Position numbers and translations under genes: made by a program. From positions 1 to 62,322 of the forward strand of contig JAFTSJ010000040.1 in assembly GCA_017467335.1 (NCBI GenBank): a stretch of 62,322 bases of DNA, in the 5' to 3' direction. Source of the stretch: Alphaproteobacteria bacterium (GTDB lineage Bacteria > Pseudomonadota > Alphaproteobacteria > CAAHEQ01 > UBA3637). Below are positions 8,567 to 62,321 of this stretch, one piece after another. A model generated the notes under the pieces. It did no database searches, was not told the origin of the DNA, and was given only the letters and a program-made list of their open reading frames with translations. Position 1 is the first letter of the stretch. Each line of letters starts with the position of its first letter.

Positions 8567-10750
8567 ATGGCTTTTAAACGTGATAGTGCTTACGAAGATC
8601 AAGGAAAATTTCTTATCTGGTTATTCTGGACGTTTGCTGCATCTGTGTTAACGTTTTTTGTTTTGATGTGGTTGATGTTGCCTATTCAAGATTGGATTAG
8701 ACGGGGAATCAGTGTTGTTACATTAGAGGATTCTGTTCGTTTTTGGAAGAAAGCCATCCCGAATACGCGATATTTATTCGGAACGTACGGACGGTGGTTT
8801 TCCACTTTTTTATCTCAATCAAATCCCAACTGGATTATGTATTTGCCATTTACGCCATTTGTGATGTTTTGGGTTGTTTTGATTGTCGGTATTATTAAAA
8901 ACCCATACGAATATATGCCGAAAATTTTCGGAGGTGGTCGTATGGCGGAATATGCCGATGTTAAAAAGATGAAATTATTTGATGGCTTTTGTGTTGTTTT
9001 AGGGCGTTTCAAAGGTAAATTGATGAAAATGCCCGAAACGTTGTCTTGTTTGGTTGTTGCCCCTCCGGGAACCGGTAAAACGGTTGGTGTTGTTATTCCG
9101 ACTATTTTGGAATCGCCGGGGTTGAGTTTAATCGTTAACGACCCTAAGCCTGAATTGTGTTTTAATACAACAGCATATCGGGCAACTATCGGACCGGTTT
9201 TTGTGATTAACTGGGGTGAAAAAGACGATCCGGAAAAAGGGGTATATTATCCCAGTTGGAATCCGTTATCTGCTACATGTTTACCTCCATTGGGTTCTGA
9301 TCGTGAAAAGTACATTGACTCAATGGTGGCCGTTTTGGTTGAAGAACCCAAAGGGGGAGCTGATCCGCACTGGTCCAAAACGGGGCGAAATGCGATGTCG
9401 GGTTTCTTACAATTTATTTCCAGTAAGTGTGAACGGGCTCGTGCAAATGACTATTTCATCAATAAATTGATGGAAAACAGTTTTGATGCTGAAGATGCTG
9501 CTGTTTTGGCAACATATTATGAGGGTATGAAAGATCAAAGTGCCATTATGGCTTTACAGGCTCTGCAACAAGGGCAGTTAACCATTGATAATTATGCTCC
9601 GATTGGTACGTGGGATGGTTTGCCGACACAATGGCAAGGATGTGAACCGTGTATTGCCATGATTTTTGACTGGTTAACCGAATCACAGATGAAAATAGCT
9701 GCTGATATTAAACGGCGTTCGGATGAAGGGGATCAAATGGCTATGATGGCCGACCCAATGCGAGATTTGTTGGATGCAGCTGTTAAAGAGGCAGACAGAT
9801 ATGCGTATGCCCATCGTGCCGTTGTTGAATTAAACCAATTGTCCGGTACGCCGGATAAGGAACGGGGTTCTATTTTATCAACAGCATTATCCGGTATTAA
9901 CATTTTTAAAAACTCGGCTGTTCGTATGCGAACAAAGTTCAGTGATTTAACGTTCCGTGATTTACGTGGATTAAAGGATCCGATTACCGGTGAAATGAAA
10001 CCTGTTTCAGTTTATTTATCTGTTAATCAGGTTGATGCACGCAGTATGAACGTTATTACAGGTATTTTTGTTGAATTGATGAGTTCTTTCTTAATTTCCA
10101 ATCCGCCTAATTTTGTGGGTACGGATGGTTTGAAGTCGGGACCGTTTCCTGTCTTATTCGTTCTTGACGAGTTTCCTCAAATGCCTAAATTGGCCGCTGT
10201 GAAAGACGGTCCGGCGGTCGGTCGTGGTCAAAAGGTTGCCTATTTATTGATTGGGCAGGATTTAGGTCAGATTTCGGGACAATACGGTAAAGACGATTTG
10301 GAAACAATTATTACAACAACGGCTGCCAAGGTTATTTTGGCACAAAACAATGAACAAACGGCCGAACGGTTCAGCAAAATGATTGGTACAAAAACGATTG
10401 AAGTTGCCAGTTCATCTCGAACGGAAGGGGTTTCGCAACAAACAAATCCGTTTGCCGCTAACGTTTCCCGTTCATTACAAAGTTCCAATGTGGTTGGGGC
10501 TTCGGACATGATGAGTTTAAGTTACTTAAAACAATATGTATTATTCCAAGGCTTTTTAAATCGTCCGATTTTGGCTGATGCACCTCGTTGGTATTTAGAT
10601 AAAAAGATGAAAAAGAAATGTGCCATGGGTGCCTCTCCTTGGGTTCCGTACTGGGTTGTTGCTCAACGAGAAGATACGGATATTCAAGCATTAAAAACGT
10701 TAATGCAGGGTCAAATCGGCGAAATTGAAGAACAGGTTAAAGGAGTTTAG
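8567..10750 (+). CDS. virD4: Type IV secretion coupling protein, VirD4/TraG family
   Basis: N-terminal TMs, Walker A (VVAPPGTGKTVGVVIP), LIVNDPKPEL, WNPL, Walker B (FVLDEFPQM) and a GRGQKVAYLLIGQDLGQI...YG motif. Confidence 0.9.
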   Translation: MAFKRDSAYEDQGKFLIWLFWTFAASVLTFFVLMWLMLPIQDWIRRGISVVTLEDSVRFWKKAIPNTRYLFGTYGRWFSTFLSQSNPNWIMYLPFTPFVMFWVVLIVGIIKNPYEYMPKIFGGGRMAEYADVKKMKLFDGFCVVLGRFKGKLMKMPETLSCLVVAPPGTGKTVGVVIPTILESPGLSLIVNDPKPELCFNTTAYRATIGPVFVINWGEKDDPEKGVYYPSWNPLSATCLPPLGSDREKYIDSMVAVLVEEPKGGADPHWSKTGRNAMSGFLQFISSKCERARANDYFINKLMENSFDAEDAAVLATYYEGMKDQSAIMALQALQQGQLTIDNYAPIGTWDGLPTQWQGCEPCIAMIFDWLTESQMKIAADIKRRSDEGDQMAMMADPMRDLLDAAVKEADRYAYAHRAVVELNQLSGTPDKERGSILSTALSGINIFKNSAVRMRTKFSDLTFRDLRGLKDPITGEMKPVSVYLSVNQVDARSMNVITGIFVELMSSFLISNPPNFVGTDGLKSGPFPVLFVLDEFPQMPKLAAVKDGPAVGRGQKVAYLLIGQDLGQISGQYGKDDLETIITTTAAKVILAQNNEQTAERFSKMIGTKTIEVASSSRTEGVSQQTNPFAANVSRSLQSSNVVGASDMMSLSYLKQYVLFQGFLNRPILADAPRWYLDKKMKKKCAMGASPWVPYWVVAQREDTDIQALKTLMQGQIGEIEEQVKGV

Positions 10751-12253: not shown

Positions 12254-12973
12254 ATGACAATCAGTGATATGAACACACCTGATGGTAACGGAAAAACAGC
12301 GTTAATGATTGCTTTGGAAAACAAGCAATTTGATAAAGCAAAAGAATTGTTACAACAAACAGATATTGATATTTATGCGACGGATAACGGTGGTCATACG
12401 GCTCTTTACTATGCTGTAAGCAGTGGTCATTTGGAGTTGACGGATATGTTGCTCGCCAAAGGTCTGGATATTCATGAAACAAGTGCTGTCGGGGACACAT
12501 TGTTGCATTGTGCTGTTAGAAGTGGTCATTTGGATATGGTTCATTATTTAATACAAACGCATCGATTAGATTTGAATGTGTTGAGTTTAACACACGGTAC
12601 ACCGTTATACTATGCGACCAGTCGGGATGAAATTGAAATAGCCCGTTATTTGTTGAATGCCGGAGCCGATGTCAGTATTGATTTACGAGGGGAAACACCG
12701 GCGATGGTTGCTTTGAAAAATAAACGCTTGGGATTTGCTCGAGAATTGGCTCGAGCAGGTAAGAAAAATGAGACATCAACCAATCATTCTGAAACAAAAC
12801 CGTCGGAAGACAAAACGCCTCAAAATCCGAAACAACCAGATATTCCTTCTCGGTTGGAAACAGCATCGGGTTATTCATTACATACAACGTTGGATAAGGC
12901 ACAAAGATTATGTGATAAACCATTGGATAAGGTTCTTGGACAACATTTGACAGGAATTGAAAAGATAAATTAA
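12254..12973 (+). CDS. Ankyrin-repeat protein
   Basis: About five ankyrin repeats (GKTALMIA, GHTALYYA, GDTLLHCA, GTPLYYA, GETPAMVA) and a disordered C-terminal tail. Confidence 0.9.
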   Translation: MTISDMNTPDGNGKTALMIALENKQFDKAKELLQQTDIDIYATDNGGHTALYYAVSSGHLELTDMLLAKGLDIHETSAVGDTLLHCAVRSGHLDMVHYLIQTHRLDLNVLSLTHGTPLYYATSRDEIEIARYLLNAGADVSIDLRGETPAMVALKNKRLGFARELARAGKKNETSTNHSETKPSEDKTPQNPKQPDIPSRLETASGYSLHTTLDKAQRLCDKPLDKVLGQHLTGIEKIN

Positions 12974-17947: not shown

Positions 17948-20710
17948 TCATTCCCAACGGTTGGATTGCTGTGTTTGTTGTCGTGTATTTGAATAGGCTT
18001 TGACGCGTGCCTTTAACAATAAATTGCGACCTTTGATTGTTCTTGTGTAAATAATATTGCAAAATCCGATACGGCGTTGCCAAATTTTTTTAAACAAAAG
18101 AACATTTTTTTTATTTAAACCGATAATAGAGGGAATGGCATAGTAATCTACCTGTTTTAAAAATCTCAAAACAGCATTTTTACGGACAAGTAAATATCGT
18201 GCATTTTCAATCGGATTTAAAAATTCAGAAAGAGATTGCATGAAAATATTATTGTCACGTAAAGATAATGTATCAGCAGAAATATAATATCCGTCTGTTG
18301 TTTTATGAACGACTAAGGATGACATTTTGGGATTTGTTGAAATAATATTCATTTCGAATAATGTTTCCAAAATAACAAGAGATATTTGTTTTAAAATACC
18401 ATCCGGTCTTCCTGTTCGGATAAGGCGTAACGTTGCCGGTAACATTAAGGCTGCAAATCCACCAATACCGAATGTGAGCATAGACATATTCCACCCAATC
18501 GGGGCACGACCAGATATGTTCTGTAGGAAAACATATGGAATTACGCACGCAGATGCCAGTCGTGCTGCAAAACCGTCAATGTATGTAAATGCTTTCGGAT
18601 GGAATATGGGTGTTTTCAATCCGATTTTTAGATGAGCCGTTCCCATACCGGTACCGTCAAACAATCCGCTTTCCCAAGCTTGTCGTGTGGTTTCACGAGA
18701 ATAAGATAACATTTTTTGAGTTAATTGTTTCAAATAATCTTGAACAGCTAAATTTTGATAAAACTTATCCAATTTATCAAATAAACACCGTTCAATACCG
18801 TTTTGAATCTGATACGGCTTGTAAAGTGTCGGGGCTTCATATCCATCAAATCGGCGTTTGACTTTGTTAAAGTCTGCTTCATCGTTTTCAAGGATATTCA
18901 TCGTTATCCAAGTAGCCATTCGGTCTACTATACTATATGTTTGGACACTGACTAAATGCCAAATATGAGATACTTTGAGTGGATTTCCTTTTTCAATTCG
19001 AATGGCTCTGCCTCTCATTTGATTAGATAACATATAGGAGGCAACCGTGCTGGATAAAATCAATGAATTGACAGCAGGAGCATCCCATCCTTCTCCCAAA
19101 AGAGCTTGTGTCCCGATAAGAATATTTAAATCTCCGCCATTGAATAAGCGCGTTATCAAATGCACAATTTTTGATTTGATGTTTTCAGCAGGTTTAACTT
19201 CTACATATTGGGGAAAGGTTGTTAATTTTTTAAATGCAATATCCGTTGTCGAAATGTTGACACTTTCCATCAGCGAAATCAATGCTTCTTTTTTACATTG
19301 AGGTAAAATAATGATTTTACCGGTCAAAACGCCCAAGAAAATGTTCGGTAGAGATAATTTTGCCAACTGCATGAAAATAGGAATAACACCTAATGTTTGT
19401 ATGGTGGATGTAAAAGCTTCCGATTTGATATAATCAGCCAAAACAACCAACCGTAATTTATCTTGTAATTGTTGACTTTCGGTTAGCACAATTTGGGAAA
19501 TAGCATCTAATTTACCCAAACTGCGAGCCATATTTTTCATCAGTTTCGGATTGCCTGTAAGATAAATTTTATGATGATATATCAAGTGATGTTTTTGAGC
19601 TTTTTGATGTAGTAACGTGATAAAATCATGTAAATTGGGAAAGCGATCCGCATAGTTAAAAATCAATTTATTCAATAAACATTCGGCTTGCATTAAATCA
19701 AATGTTGGTAAGGCTTTTTGTTGTGTATCGAATAATTTACAAAATGCTTTGGGAAGTGTAAATTGATGATAATTTAAATAAGATGCCAATGCAATGTAAA
19801 ATTTTGGATCATCAAATATGTTTTCAATATATTGTCGGGGATTTTTCCAAACGTCCAAATGAAAAACATGGACGGGCATATCCTTGTCTTCTAAAAAATC
19901 AGTATAAAACGATAGAGCATTGTCTTGATACAAATAATGACTCTGTTCTTCTTCTTTTCGTAACGGAGCAAAGTATATTAAGTCTTGATGAGGGCATAAA
20001 TCCCCATTTTTAACCAATTCGGGAATGCTGATACATTCATCAATTGGACCGCATAACTTTTCATATCGTTTCCATTCATTAAAATCCACATCATAAGGAG
20101 GCGTTGCCGTCAATGATAATGTTGTCGATGGTTTTAAATGTTCCATAATATAGTCTAATGCTTTCCACCATTCTTTTCGTAAATGATGGGCTTCATCGAA
20201 ACATAATAAATCAATATTTGCGTCTTTCAGTTTTTGAATGAGTGCTTGGGCTTTTTTGCTGTTAAGGCGAGCAAAAGCCTTTTCCGGTTGTTTGGTTTGT
20301 GGAAGTGTATCTGTTTCTTCTATATCTGAATTGGCAACGATATCCGCAGAAGAAACATCATTTTCTTCTTTGTGACCACATAAAGCGGCTAAAAGACCTT
20401 GATAAGTCGATATCGTAATCGTTTTGGGAGATAAAATATCCATTGAAATCAATTGAGAAGCGATTTGTGTATCAGTTAAAAAAAGTTGTTTCAGTCGCAA
20501 TTCCCATTGGTTTTTAATTGTAATGGTTGGTGCTAAAATTAAACATTTTTTACCGATACGCCGGATAACTTCTAATCCTAAAATGGTTTTACCGGCCCCC
20601 GGAGCAGCCACGATATGTAATTTTTCATCGGATAGATGTTTTTGTAAGCGATTGAGAACGTTTTGTTGATACGAACGCCATTTGCCATCAAATCTTAAAT
20701 GGTTAAACAT
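17948..20710 (-). CDS. SF2 DEAD/DEAH-box helicase family protein
   Basis: AAPGAGKT, DEAHH, LTATP, LGEGWDAP and QMRGRAIR motifs. The ORF track gives an alternative start at 20722. Confidence 0.9.
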   Translation of the reverse strand: MFNHLRFDGKWRSYQQNVLNRLQKHLSDEKLHIVAAPGAGKTILGLEVIRRIGKKCLILAPTITIKNQWELRLKQLFLTDTQIASQLISMDILSPKTITISTYQGLLAALCGHKEENDVSSADIVANSDIEETDTLPQTKQPEKAFARLNSKKAQALIQKLKDANIDLLCFDEAHHLRKEWWKALDYIMEHLKPSTTLSLTATPPYDVDFNEWKRYEKLCGPIDECISIPELVKNGDLCPHQDLIYFAPLRKEEEQSHYLYQDNALSFYTDFLEDKDMPVHVFHLDVWKNPRQYIENIFDDPKFYIALASYLNYHQFTLPKAFCKLFDTQQKALPTFDLMQAECLLNKLIFNYADRFPNLHDFITLLHQKAQKHHLIYHHKIYLTGNPKLMKNMARSLGKLDAISQIVLTESQQLQDKLRLVVLADYIKSEAFTSTIQTLGVIPIFMQLAKLSLPNIFLGVLTGKIIILPQCKKEALISLMESVNISTTDIAFKKLTTFPQYVEVKPAENIKSKIVHLITRLFNGGDLNILIGTQALLGEGWDAPAVNSLILSSTVASYMLSNQMRGRAIRIEKGNPLKVSHIWHLVSVQTYSIVDRMATWITMNILENDEADFNKVKRRFDGYEAPTLYKPYQIQNGIERCLFDKLDKFYQNLAVQDYLKQLTQKMLSYSRETTRQAWESGLFDGTGMGTAHLKIGLKTPIFHPKAFTYIDGFAARLASACVIPYVFLQNISGRAPIGWNMSMLTFGIGGFAALMLPATLRLIRTGRPDGILKQISLVILETLFEMNIISTNPKMSSLVVHKTTDGYYISADTLSLRDNNIFMQSLSEFLNPIENARYLLVRKNAVLRFLKQVDYYAIPSIIGLNKKNVLLFKKIWQRRIGFCNIIYTRTIKGRNLLLKARVKAYSNTRQQTQQSNRWE

Positions 20711-20763
20711 AGATACCCCCATATTTATATTTTTAATGCGATCATACCCCTAAAAATCAATTG

Positions 20764-21273
20764 TTATTTAATATGCCCCTTGTATTGTTGTTTTTGCCGA
20801 ATGGTTTGAATCGTTGTATCCTTTGCAACACGAACGGCAGGCATAGATTCTTTTTTTGAAATGGCTTGATATAAATATTTCGCAAGAGCCGTTTGACGAT
20901 TTGTTTCGTATAAATGTTCATAAGATGTTAAAAATTGCCAAACGGATGTTAATTTTAAATGAGCAGCTAACATGGCCGGTGTCATACCTTGTTTATTTTG
21001 AATAAACGGGTTCGGATTGAGACGAGATAAAAATGCAACATCTAACATGTCGTCTTGTTGCATATTTCCTTCGGCAATGGTGTTATGACCTCTTAATTGG
21101 TCACTTCGAACGGCAATATGTAATAATGTATCACCGTTGGCATCTTGACCGTTGATATCACAACCGGATTGTAATAAATCCTTGATAAACGCAACTTGCT
21201 GTCCGATTTGTTGAAACGGTAAGGATTCAATTTCTTTTAGTGCTTTTTCAATTCTGATATTTATTTTTCCCAT
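20764..21273 (-). CDS. Small ankyrin-repeat protein
   Basis: DINGQDANGDTLLHIAV and NKQGMTPAMLA motifs, with a basic C-terminus. Confidence 0.75.
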   Translation of the reverse strand: MGKINIRIEKALKEIESLPFQQIGQQVAFIKDLLQSGCDINGQDANGDTLLHIAVRSDQLRGHNTIAEGNMQQDDMLDVAFLSRLNPNPFIQNKQGMTPAMLAAHLKLTSVWQFLTSYEHLYETNRQTALAKYLYQAISKKESMPAVRVAKDTTIQTIRQKQQYKGHIK

Positions 21274-22778: not shown

Positions 22779-23216
22779 TTATTGTGTATTTGTTTTTTTA
22801 GGGGCACAAATAGCGTGTTTACCGCTATCGGCTTTTCCGAATGAATTTAAGGTCCCACTGTTGGGATTGATGACCCGAGCAACTGTTGTACTGGTACCAA
22901 CTTCTGTCCATGCAAATACATTACCGGTATAAGCTCCGACAATATTCGGACATGCACCGGCACCTGTTCCACCCAGCCATCTTTTTTCTTCACTAATATA
23001 ACATAAATCAGTTAAATTTCCCAATTTCATTGATTGAGATTCGCACCAAGCAAATGCACTCCACCAATTCATACCGATTTTACTTAAGCAATATTTTGTA
23101 CCGTTTTTACCTTCAATAGGGTGACCGCCATCACAATCAGCCCAAGAAGATGTTGATATAATACAACCTAAAGTGATAACGATTGAAAAAAATAAAGATT
23201 TTGGTTTTATTAACAT
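22779..23216 (-). CDS. Small secreted Cys-containing protein, C-type-lectin/Lcl-like
   Basis: Signal peptide and CDGG...GKNG..YCLS...MNWWSAFAWC motif. Paralog of 61615-61980. Confidence 0.75.
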   Translation of the reverse strand: MLIKPKSLFFSIVITLGCIISTSSWADCDGGHPIEGKNGTKYCLSKIGMNWWSAFAWCESQSMKLGNLTDLCYISEEKRWLGGTGAGACPNIVGAYTGNVFAWTEVGTSTTVARVINPNSGTLNSFGKADSGKHAICAPKKTNTQ

Positions 23217-23475
23217 ATGTTTTTCCTTTATATCTATTGCGAATATATTATATTTATACTGTATTTAAAAAGAAATCAAATAAAAAAAACAAACAGATTG
23301 ATTTTAAAGTGTAGAAAATATTTTTTTGTTTTATTATATTGTTTATCATAAATATTTTATATAATACAGTCCAAAAAACAGCCGTTAATTTTTTGTAAAA
23401 TATCCGTAAAAAAACATTTAAGATTTTTTCAAATGGCGAAAATAAAAAGAGAACTAAATCAATTTGTTAACTTAA

Positions 23476-23505
23476 AAAAATGTGTCAAAAAAACGTCCCT
23501 TTTTT
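23476..23505. repeat. Left inverted repeat (IRL) of a putative invertible promoter
   Basis: AAAAATGTGTCAAAAAAACGTCCCTTTTTT, 29/30 identical to the reverse complement of 23617-23646. It has an internal dyad TGTC-A7-cgtccc-T7-GACA. Confidence 0.9.
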
Positions 23506-23509
23506 TGAC

Positions 23510-23538
23510 ATAATATTTTAGATTTATTTCATTGTCAA
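23510..23538 (-). promoter_or_regulatory. Sigma70 promoter inside the invertible segment, pointing left
   Basis: Minus strand reads TTGACA (23538-23533), N17, TATTAT (23515-23510). Confidence 0.8.
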
Positions 23539-23616
23539 CTAAAATTTGTAATTATTTGATTTTTCATGATTTTTTTGTTTTTGAAAAAGTGTAACCCTTA
23601 CCAAAAAAAAGCGTTC

Positions 23617-23646
23617 AAAAAAGGGACGTTTTTTTGACATATTTTT
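23617..23646. repeat. Right inverted repeat (IRR) of a putative invertible promoter
   Basis: AAAAAAGGGACGTTTTTTTGACATATTTTT, the reverse complement of IRL with one mismatch. The asymmetric core is inverted (GGGACG). Confidence 0.9.
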
Positions 23647-23691
23647 GAAAAATAACTGTCTGATTTTATTCATTTTTAAAATGGGGGTTCT

Positions 23692-25050
23692 ATGGAAATT
23701 TTAAACGCTTTTTTTAACGGATATTTTAAACAAAAAACAGCTGAAACAGGACGCAGTATGGTAGAAATGTTGGGCGTTTTGGCGGTTATTGGTGTTCTTT
23801 CAATCGGGGGTATTTACGGTTATACATTTGCGATGGATAAATATCTGGCAAATGAAACGTTAAATGAATTGAATACATTAGCTCACACACACGGTATGCA
23901 GATATATCAGATGATTGAAAAGGATGCTTTTCCATCTGACGATACCGTTTTAAGTGATGAAGATGCAAAAACCCGCTTAGGTTTTGATTACGAAGTTGCG
24001 GTATTCAGTGACCATTTTGAAATAGATGTTTTTGATGTGCCATATGCTATTTGTAATCAAATTCAACAAACGGCTTGGAATTTGCCATATGATGTTCAGG
24101 TTACAAATGCAACCACAGAAAAATGTGAAGCCGTTACGTATTTTTTTGATAACAATCTTTTCAGTCCTGATAATATGCAACAAGGCACGGGTGGTATCGG
24201 TAACAACAGTGATAATAATGATGGCCTTAATTGTGAAACAGGTTATTATGAAGAAGACGGTGAATGTTTTCCGGCACCGGTTATTTCTGCTCCCAGCCCT
24301 CAAGATTTTTCGACAGAATTAGTTATTGGTACCAAATATACCCATCAAATTCAAGCCAGTGTTACAGAAAATGCAGAACTTACTTATACGTTAAATAATG
24401 CACCGGCTACAATGCGTATTAGTAATACCGGTTTAATAACCTATAAACCAACATCAGATGATAATTCAAATGGCACGGTATCCGTTCAAATAACAGCTCC
24501 GCATGCACAGTCAGTCAGTGTTCAAGTGGGTTATGAAATAGCATTAGAAAGCCTGGGTGATTGTACTAATGTCACGATGTGTGATATTCAGCGAGATGGC
24601 ATGACTGTTAGTATTATTAAAGGTGGATTACAGGAATGTGGTCCGAATCAATTTTGTGCATATACAGGAACATTTTCTCCAACAACAGTTAATGACTGTG
24701 AAATCGGAAGTTTTAGAGGACCGGTTAGCGGAACATGTCAAACGGCTTCTCATGTAACGGAACTCGTTGGTTATCCCAAGGAATTTTTGGGAATATCTTT
24801 TATTTCTCAATGTTATGCTGGGGGTGGACGTTTGCCGTTTAAATCGGAATTGATAGCACAAGGGTTAAGTCCGGCTGATTATTGGTATGTGTCCGGTAAT
24901 ACATTTCAATTAGATGCAGAAATGGGTTCTTCAGATGTTAATCCGGTAGAATTTTTATATAATATTTATATGCCGTTTGACATGACCGCCGAACAAATGT
25001 TGAAGGCTTATAATACACGTAGTATTATTAAGTGTGTTTATGATGATTAA
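23692..25050 (+). CDS. Pilin-like (class III signal peptide) adhesin with Ig/cadherin-like domain and Cys-rich C-terminus
   Basis: ETG|RSMVEMLGVLAVIGVLSIGG N-terminus, an Ig-like LTYTLNNAPATMRISNTGLITYKP segment and a Cys-rich C-terminal region. RBS GGGGG. Confidence 0.85.
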   Translation: MEILNAFFNGYFKQKTAETGRSMVEMLGVLAVIGVLSIGGIYGYTFAMDKYLANETLNELNTLAHTHGMQIYQMIEKDAFPSDDTVLSDEDAKTRLGFDYEVAVFSDHFEIDVFDVPYAICNQIQQTAWNLPYDVQVTNATTEKCEAVTYFFDNNLFSPDNMQQGTGGIGNNSDNNDGLNCETGYYEEDGECFPAPVISAPSPQDFSTELVIGTKYTHQIQASVTENAELTYTLNNAPATMRISNTGLITYKPTSDDNSNGTVSVQITAPHAQSVSVQVGYEIALESLGDCTNVTMCDIQRDGMTVSIIKGGLQECGPNQFCAYTGTFSPTTVNDCEIGSFRGPVSGTCQTASHVTELVGYPKEFLGISFISQCYAGGGRLPFKSELIAQGLSPADYWYVSGNTFQLDAEMGSSDVNPVEFLYNIYMPFDMTAEQMLKAYNTRSIIKCVYDD

Positions 25051-62018: not shown

Positions 62019-62321
62019 TTATTCCACTATCGGACATTCTTCTAAATCACCTAAATTGTACTCCATGTCTAAACACACGCCCCAAAGCGGATTATTGCCT
62101 TTGGCGTCCGCCTTATCGGTACATCCTTTCGATTTAAACGCTAAATAACAATATTGTTGTTTCGGGCAATCTGTTTGAACAGACAACATCTTTTCCCAAT
62201 CCGGTATGTCCATTTTGCACGAAGCAGTGGTACTATCCATATCTGTACAAGCCCCGAAAATCTGACCGGTCTGATTGGCACTTATGCCACCCGAACATGT
62301 TTCAGAACCAAACGATAACGC
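62019..62321 (-). CDS. C-terminal part of a Cys-rich repeat protein (probable pilin-like paralog; 5' end off the window)
   Basis: The frame is open to the edge: ...TCSGGISANQTGQIFGAC...DCPKQQYCYLAFKSKGC...PLWGVC..., the same repeat pattern as in 21447-22727. Confidence 0.75.
   Translation of the reverse strand, partial: ALSFGSETCSGGISANQTGQIFGACTDMDSTTASCKMDIPDWEKMLSVQTDCPKQQYCYLAFKSKGCTDKADAKGNNPLWGVCLDMEYNLGDLEECPIVE

Follow-up and report, generated by a model that had tools for sequence, protein, structure and literature searches.

A probable invertible promoter upstream of a pilin-like gene family in an uncultured gut alphaproteobacterium

A short intergenic region in front of a pilin-like gene is likely to be an inverton, an invertible promoter that places a pilin-like surface protein under phase variation. 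The region lies in a 62-kb chromosomal contig (62,322 nucleotides, 37% G+C, hereafter the window) of an alphaproteobacterium whose relatives are Alphaproteobacteria metagenome-assembled genomes (MAGs) from animal guts. It carries a consensus-like promoter between two inverted dyad sites, belongs to a multi-copy family, one member of which was found precisely flipped, and shares the window with the gene for a serine recombinase of the Mpi master-invertase family. Very probably, this is a Bacteroides-style DNA flip-switch operating in a different phylum. An inverton served by a master serine invertase is of a well-known kind, and the member described here is new.

Results and Discussion

Structure of the switch

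The left arm of the repeat (IRL, 23476-23505, AAAAATGTGTCAAAAAAACGTCCCTTTTTT) and the reverse complement of the right arm (IRR, 23617-23646) are identical at 29 of 30 positions, the single mismatch opposing G at 23482 to the complement of T at 23640, and a gap of 111 bp (23506-23616) separates the two; both values of the original prediction were reproduced on re-measurement. The repeat is perfect over 23 nt (23483-23505 / 23617-23639), and this 23-nt word occurs twice in the window, where 0.01 matches are expected and none of 100 shuffles reached two. When the required identity is lowered (79%), the inverted repeat grows to 61 nt (23445-23505 / 23617-23677). A recurring (T)AAA(A)TCA block is found about 20 nt from each site, in the flanks 23445-23475 and 23647-23677. 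It might be an accessory binding site.

Each site had been described as a dyad around an asymmetric 6-bp core (left CGTCCC, right GGGACG), and this holds, the left dyad being perfect and the right one departing from the dyad pattern at 3 positions (Table 1). The cores are mutually inverted, and the order of elements is …AAAAAAATG TGTCAAAAAAA CGTCCC TTTTTTTGACA (middle) GCGTTCAAAAAA GGGACG TTTTTTTGACA TATTTTTG…. In the 28-bp site, a central TC/GA dinucleotide can be seen to separate two 13-bp half-sites of the form TGTCAAAAAAA(C/G)G, and half-sites around a central dinucleotide are the layout of serine-invertase sites. An orthologue in another species (protein P0001, locus L028) has the same layout; its left core GGTACG and right core CGTACC are unlike those of the window and yet exact reverse complements of each other. 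Such concerted change points to a crossover region in which the partner sites have to match, a need that the spacer of an operator does not have.

Table 1. Features of the switch, its neighbouring genes and the candidate recombinase (window coordinates; strand. where none applies)
Feature	Coordinates	Strand	Remarks
Paralogous pilin-like gene, 426 aa	21447..22727	+	short leader; no switch upstream
Divergent gene, 145-aa secreted-looking protein	22779..23216	-	promoter currently faces this gene; ~287-nt leader
Left outer flank	23445..23475	.	weaker inverted repeat of 23647-23677; conserved among copies
Left putative recombination site (IRL)	23483..23510	.	perfect 28-bp dyad TGTC-A7-CGTCCC-T7-GACA
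Putative invertible middle	23506..23616	-	111 bp; promoter-bearing; OFF relative to the gene at 23692
Predicted sigma70-type promoter	23510..23538	-	TTGACA (23538-23533), 17-nt spacer, TATTAT (23515-23510); points left
Right putative recombination site (IRR)	23612..23639	.	imperfect dyad (C)GTTC-A6-GGGACG-T7-GACA; degenerate inner arm
Conserved 5' UTR	23640..23691	+	Shine-Dalgarno-like GGGGG at 23683-23687; conserved at the DNA level among copies
Predicted controlled gene, 452-aa pilin-like protein	23692..25050	+	leader, Glu at +5, variable C-terminal part
Stand-alone serine recombinase, Mpi master-invertase family, 218 aa	47456..48112	+	Resolvase and HTH_7 domains; NF009949

The promoter between the cores, TTGACA-N17-TATTAT, points away from the gene at 23692 as originally predicted; it matches at 11 of 12 positions and is the top promoter-like site in 23100-23800, with a predicted leftward start near 23503 in the current orientation. 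All 10 aligned copies, the divergent L028 subclass among them, have the same -35 block (TTGTCAACTAAAA). When 23506-23616 is mirrored in silico, the -10 hexamer comes to lie at 23607-23612 on the plus strand and the computed start at about 23619-23620, some 72 nt upstream of the ATG at 23692, in good agreement with the roughly 70 nt claimed for the inverted state. Only in the ON state would the 5' UTR that follows be part of a transcript; where the window reads GGGGG, L028 has GGAGG.

A role at the RNA level was also considered, in which a read-through transcript would fold either into a pair of hairpins whose loops are complementary or into a long-range stem of 23 bp, and the fold would act as a terminator, attenuator or processing signal. 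Each repeat can indeed fold into an 11-bp A:U-rich hairpin with a 6-nt loop, the two loops are complementary, and a Rho-independent terminator-like site was flagged at 23605-23635. That terminator was rejected for its weak T-tail and a pairing that is not conserved in L028, no convincing rightward promoter was found upstream of IRL, and an RNA function leaves unexplained both the exact inversion described below and the conserved consensus promoter within the segment. We give this reading hardly any credence.

The pilin-like gene and its neighbourhood

The 452-aa protein encoded downstream of the switch begins with a 20-aa leader (MEILNAFFNGYFKQKTAETG) followed by G/RSMVEMLGVLAVIGVLS, with Glu at +5, a type IV prepilin-like N-terminus; its C-terminal part is variable and has a weak match to Big_9. 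With its first 75 residues as query, 698 relatives were retrieved at E<=1e-3, almost all of them unnamed. The 426-aa paralogue is 34% identical to P0002 over the full length of the paralogue, and no recombination site was found in front of it at 3 or fewer mismatches. The divergent 145-aa protein had no match in Pfam or NCBIfam, but it carries a MNWWSA..C motif that also occurs in C-terminal modules of pilin-like family members and is 39% identical over 28 aa to two repeats of P0020.

The housekeeping genes of the window include rho, sucCD, rpoB, ffh, dnaKJ and ribosomal protein genes. Among them are found genes for a VirD4/TraG-type coupling protein (8567-10750), two ankyrin-repeat proteins (12254-12973 and 20764-21273) and a 924-aa ResIII/DEAD helicase (17948-20722) whose long C-terminal part is unannotated. 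The contig ends within another gene of the pilin-like family (62019-62321, minus strand), of which only the C-terminal 100 aa are present (P0263, P0003-like).

Inversion at a sister locus

Evidence for inversion comes from a sister locus of which two assembled versions are available. In the first (L031), flanks and 23-nt sites are as in the window and the middle is reversed, with TTGACA-N17-TATTAT facing the gene (ON); the window middle matches it at 106 of 111 positions as reverse complement. In the second (L035, sample ERZ28018951), the middle has the usual orientation (OFF). The L031 middle equals the reverse complement of the L035 middle exactly (111/111), the downstream flanks differ by 1 mismatch in 548 nt (99.8% identity), and over the 23-nt repeat the sites of the sister locus are identical to the window sites. 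The inner arms (T7-GACA versus T6-GAAC) swapped sides along with the middle, which places the exchange inside the 23-nt repeat. Judged from the sequences, a precise inversion free of substitutions between near-identical strains is what site-specific inversion produces.

An assembly artefact was considered as the origin of the flipped version and judged unlikely, since L031 belongs to a 73-kb contig assembled at k=141 (sample ERZ28019339) that crosses both junctions, and any word of about 32 nt or longer that spans the repeat fixes the orientation. In principle, L031 and L035 could also differ through a rare inversion that became fixed between strains.

Comparison of orientation among related assemblies, which had been proposed as a check, recovered both states: 9 of the 10 oriented contigs are OFF and one is ON, the sole ON copy being L031, which precedes a truncated 85-aa gene. 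Both assemblies that span the window locus, the window itself and L033, are OFF and identical (4359 of 4359 positions), although they may not be independent; the claim that this locus was assembled as OFF therefore stands. Both orientations were seen at the sister locus and only OFF at the window locus. As to the ON/OFF inversion switch originally proposed, it is supported for the element family by the flipped sister locus and by the Mpi-family invertase encoded in the window, while inversion was not seen at the window locus itself. Logan contigs from eight runs gave no strand-change joints, but their k=31 unitigs cannot bridge the 23-30-nt repeat together with a locus-specific flank, and Logan contig depth at the switch is swamped by other paralogues. 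A search for RNA runs found none.

The alternative of a fixed regulatory region has to be weighed at this point. The dyads would then be operators of a dimeric repressor or activator, or looping sites, bracketing a leftward promoter of the 145-aa gene, no inversion would take place here, and L031 would represent a rare evolutionary inversion. Each site is a palindrome of the type bound by dimeric regulators, a gene does sit downstream of the leftward promoter in the window, the window locus is known in one orientation and nine of ten oriented contigs agree with it. However, operators would have no need of 6-bp cores that are reverse-complementary in both subclasses though differing between them, and a sister locus flipped with no change in 111 bp between strains differing at 1 in 548 nt. 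Two further observations presented below, namely leftward neighbours that are not conserved among copies and an Mpi-family invertase in the window, also speak against a fixed region, and we regard it as unlikely.

A multi-copy cassette in front of family genes

The switch forms part of a longer repeated unit. In the four gut metagenome runs that best represent the region, the summed depth of the contigs increases roughly 170-fold across 23432-23858, from about 12 to about 2000, and unique contigs stop at 23500-23504 and resume at 23733; the same pattern of depth and breaks was obtained in four further runs. The repeated unit thus runs from the left flank through the two sites and the middle that they enclose to the 5' UTR and the first ~55 codons, a cassette of about 420 bp including about 45 bp of left flank.

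Eleven assembled contigs span or partly span a copy of the switch. Copies with matching flanks, 5' UTR and leader codons were found at L002, L005, L027, L029, L032 and L036; these contigs encode proteins (P0002-P0004 and P0121-P0127) that have the common leader and differing C-terminal domains. The window middle aligns in the forward direction to seven other copies at 103-107 of 111 positions. L036 lies at the opposite end of the 85-kb contig that carries L033, so that the strain of the window has at least two switch copies; L035 comes from the same sample as this contig. A scan of the genome contigs with the exact pattern returned two true copies (L002 and L005); its seven other matches were rejected as unrelated hairpins with A/T stems, the searched core being common to all matches by construction. 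The same scan of the metagenome contigs gave 17 single matches, none of them related.

Four matches in Parabacteroides and Odoribacter MAGs (L001, L003, L004 and L007) are hairpins of the form GC-stem-A7-CGTCCC-T7-stem; they occur twice in each of two Bacteroidales MAGs and were found only through the searched 20-mer that they contain. They may be due to chance or represent a local type of terminator.

The leftward neighbour is a different one at every other copy: a tRNA, an Amidase_2 gene or another ORF in convergent orientation, or an HTH gene at a distance of about 450 bp. The suggestion that the switch toggles between the pilin-like gene and the divergent gene, originally called lectin-like, was weak and is rejected as a general mechanism. 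At the window locus, the promoter in its OFF state may add to transcription of the 145-aa gene.

Several assemblies are interrupted right at a site: of those covering this locus or a sister locus, L030 begins with GGGACG and L034 with the A-run of IRR, while the start of L035 falls just inside IRL and L005 ends within the distal site. Pilin-like family genes of related MAGs are also often 'partial' at contig ends, as expected if the cassette breaks assemblies.

One copy has lost the switch. On L038/L039 (L038:640-760, L039:1-90) the left flank is fused to the right flank (…GCAAAATCAA/CACATTTTTAAAAAATAACTGTCTG…), the whole switch of about 175 bp being gone with no target duplication at the junction; the missing stretch is asymmetric, beginning 20 nt outside IRL and ending inside IRR. 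The gene behind this junction is a frameshifted 91-aa remnant, and joint loss of switch and reading frame fits a switch that holds the only promoter of the gene. The same junction recurs as a loose end in runs X1 and X6.

These features bear on whether the element between the outer ends of the 23-nt repeats (23483-23639) might be a MITE-like mobile cassette with an outward promoter that has spread in front of family genes. It does have terminal inverted repeats, a length of 157 bp and many copies, and the L038/L039 copy could be taken for an empty site. Against mobility, conservation extends past both repeats, into about 45 bp of flank on one side and the 5' UTR with 55 codons on the other, the position of the element is fixed relative to the ATG, and the scanned genome and metagenome contigs held no copy away from a family gene. 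The junction in L038, asymmetric and free of a target-site duplication, also speaks against mobility, and the frameshifted remnant behind it suggests decay rather than an ancestral state. A mobile cassette is therefore very improbable, and we retain the invertible promoter as the preferred reading.

Some contigs hint at rearrangements beyond simple inversion, namely the switch-deleted copy just described and half-switches that pass into unrelated DNA at the core or beside it. The latter occur in runs X3, X5, X6 and X7 (window positions 23498 and 23628-23631), with joints such as …CCGTTTCAACGAAACGTCC/TTTTTTTGACATAAT… and GGGACG/GTCTGAGTGTTAGT…, and may reflect partner sites that are solitary or variant, rearrangements on a larger scale, or DNA of other organisms. 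Contigs of X1-X3 join 23563 through 28-39 other letters back to 23474, a step back of 90, which suggests that at some locus of the family the left site and the promoter half are partly arranged in tandem. Upstream of one sister switch (L027:5380-5600) lies an array of repeats of about 25-40 bp that contain GTCATGCTGAAC.

A candidate invertase of the Mpi family

The window encodes a 218-aa protein with a Resolvase domain (1.9e-31) and an HTH_7 domain. It scores 300.9 bits against the NCBIfam model NF009949 ('master DNA invertase Mpi family serine-type recombinase'; curated equivalog cut-off 272) over model positions 1-197 of 203. Its nearest solved relatives are the DNA-invertase entries 4m6f (best) and 3uj3, and the nucleophilic serine is conserved (YIRIST aligned with YVRVST). 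The gene, a solitary one flanked by genes for a permease and a PIF1-like helicase, lies 24 kb from the switch and is the only site-specific recombinase gene among the scanned window ORFs of at least 150 aa; no tyrosine recombinase of the Phage_integrase type was found among these ORFs. Homologues at 60-84% identity are common in related Alphaproteobacteria MAGs, and some of them are named as Mpi family by NCBI. By analogy, this enzyme is most likely the invertase acting in trans on the switch.

Proposed mechanism

In the mechanism that we propose, a serine invertase, most likely the Mpi-family enzyme, would synapse the two 28-bp dyad sites, whose A-tract half-sites are arranged about an asymmetric centre, in inverted orientation and 129 bp apart from centre to centre. 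It would cut each site at its centre and rejoin the ends after strand rotation, flipping the 111-bp middle; by analogy, staggered cuts at the central 2 bp followed by a 180-degree rotation would yield inversion of the DNA between inverted sites. The only strong promoter would, in the OFF state assembled here, fire leftward and so away from the pilin-like gene; once inverted (ON), it would fire rightward from about 23619, through a leader of about 72 nt and the conserved 5' UTR, into the pilin-like gene. The predicted ON junctions read GTTAACTTAAAAAAATG, the 23-nt repeat and GAACGC on the left, and TATTATGTCAAAAAAAGGGACGTTTTTTTGACATAT on the right. We infer that the window copy flips through the action of this recombinase, with a cut in the centre of each dyad, and that no other promoter drives the gene.

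The same switch, 5' UTR and about 55 codons precede several sister genes, so a single trans-acting invertase could vary the whole family of surface proteins, as Mpi does for the capsules of Bacteroides. More tentatively, the data can be read as a genome-wide system of two layers, which we consider possible although doubtful. In the first layer, many pilin-like adhesin genes would stand behind the same strongly OFF-biased 111-bp inverton, under one master serine invertase; in the second, the cassette of about 420 bp would double as a homology tract for swapping the variable 3' parts of the genes.

Comparison with known systems

Master-invertase-run invertible promoters are a hallmark of Bacteroides gut adaptation, and Mpi (FinA, Ssr2) of Bacteroides fragilis is the closest parallel in several respects. 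Both enzymes are small stand-alone serine recombinases of the same NCBIfam equivalog family, encoded away from their targets, and in both cases many dispersed short promoter segments with one shared inverted repeat lie upstream of surface-structure genes of a gut symbiont. In contrast, the host is here a member of the Alphaproteobacteria and not of the Bacteroidota, the predicted targets are type IV pilin-like proteins instead of polysaccharide operons, the segment, of only 111 bp, has a promoter of the sigma70 TTGACA/TATAAT type, the site is an A7/T7 dyad with core CGTCCC, and the switch lies inside a larger repeated cassette with the 5' UTR and the first ~55 codons. The centre-to-centre distance of 129 bp is shorter than is known for Mpi or Hin substrates, and this counts against the inverton reading. 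Against ARACGTWCGT, which we take to be the consensus of the Mpi/fin repeat, AAACGTCCCT would match at 8 of 10 positions and AAACGTACCT of L028 at 9 of 10. In B. fragilis, mpi/finA inverts many dispersed promoters, those of polysaccharide and other fin regions, and its deletion locks all of them (10.1101/2022.10.31.514637; PMC3090145). The fin/Mpi repeats are described as hin-like, at least in the title of Patrick et al. 2003 as cited in PMC3090145.

Invertases of the Hin/Gin/Cin/Pin group, with their hix and gix sites, are likewise serine recombinases, the best solved relative of the enzyme found here being the DNA-invertase 4m6f, and they act on inverted dyad sites made of two half-sites about an asymmetric centre. 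The A-tract half-site TCAAAAA presumably resembles the hix half-site. In those systems, however, the invertase gene lies in or next to a segment of about 1-4 kb with a Fis-dependent enhancer, whereas the present segment has 111 bp and no ORF, and the nearest recombinase, 24 kb off, probably serves many loci; no enhancer was identified.

A gene family of surface proteins, each with its own small adjacent invertible promoter, recalls mpl (P35) of Mycoplasma penetrans, and one recombinase with several short switches of about 150-200 bp recalls RecV of Clostridioides difficile (flgB, cwpV). The mpl and RecV switches use tyrosine recombinases; the present system differs from the fimS/RecV type in that the scanned ORFs of the window, those of 150 aa or more, include no such enzyme.

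Significance

A search of the literature found no paper describing an Mpi-type inverton in Alphaproteobacteria or upstream of pilin-like genes, and to our knowledge neither on/off switching of this kind nor cassette shuffling has been described in the phylum. The switch gives a handle on a protein family with hundreds of members and no annotation, and it explains why assemblies of these MAGs break at pilin-like genes. It also calls for caution in reading orientation from a consensus assembly, which represents the majority state only. If the tentative two-layer reading were true, surface variation would combine on/off switching with the shuffling of cassettes. The design, an Mpi-family enzyme with a shared dyad site and many dispersed promoters, is here placed on unannotated pilin-like, probably adhesive, proteins of a small-genome, uncultured gut alphaproteobacterium unrelated to Bacteroides, and this bet-hedging arrangement would thus be shared or transferred across gut phyla.
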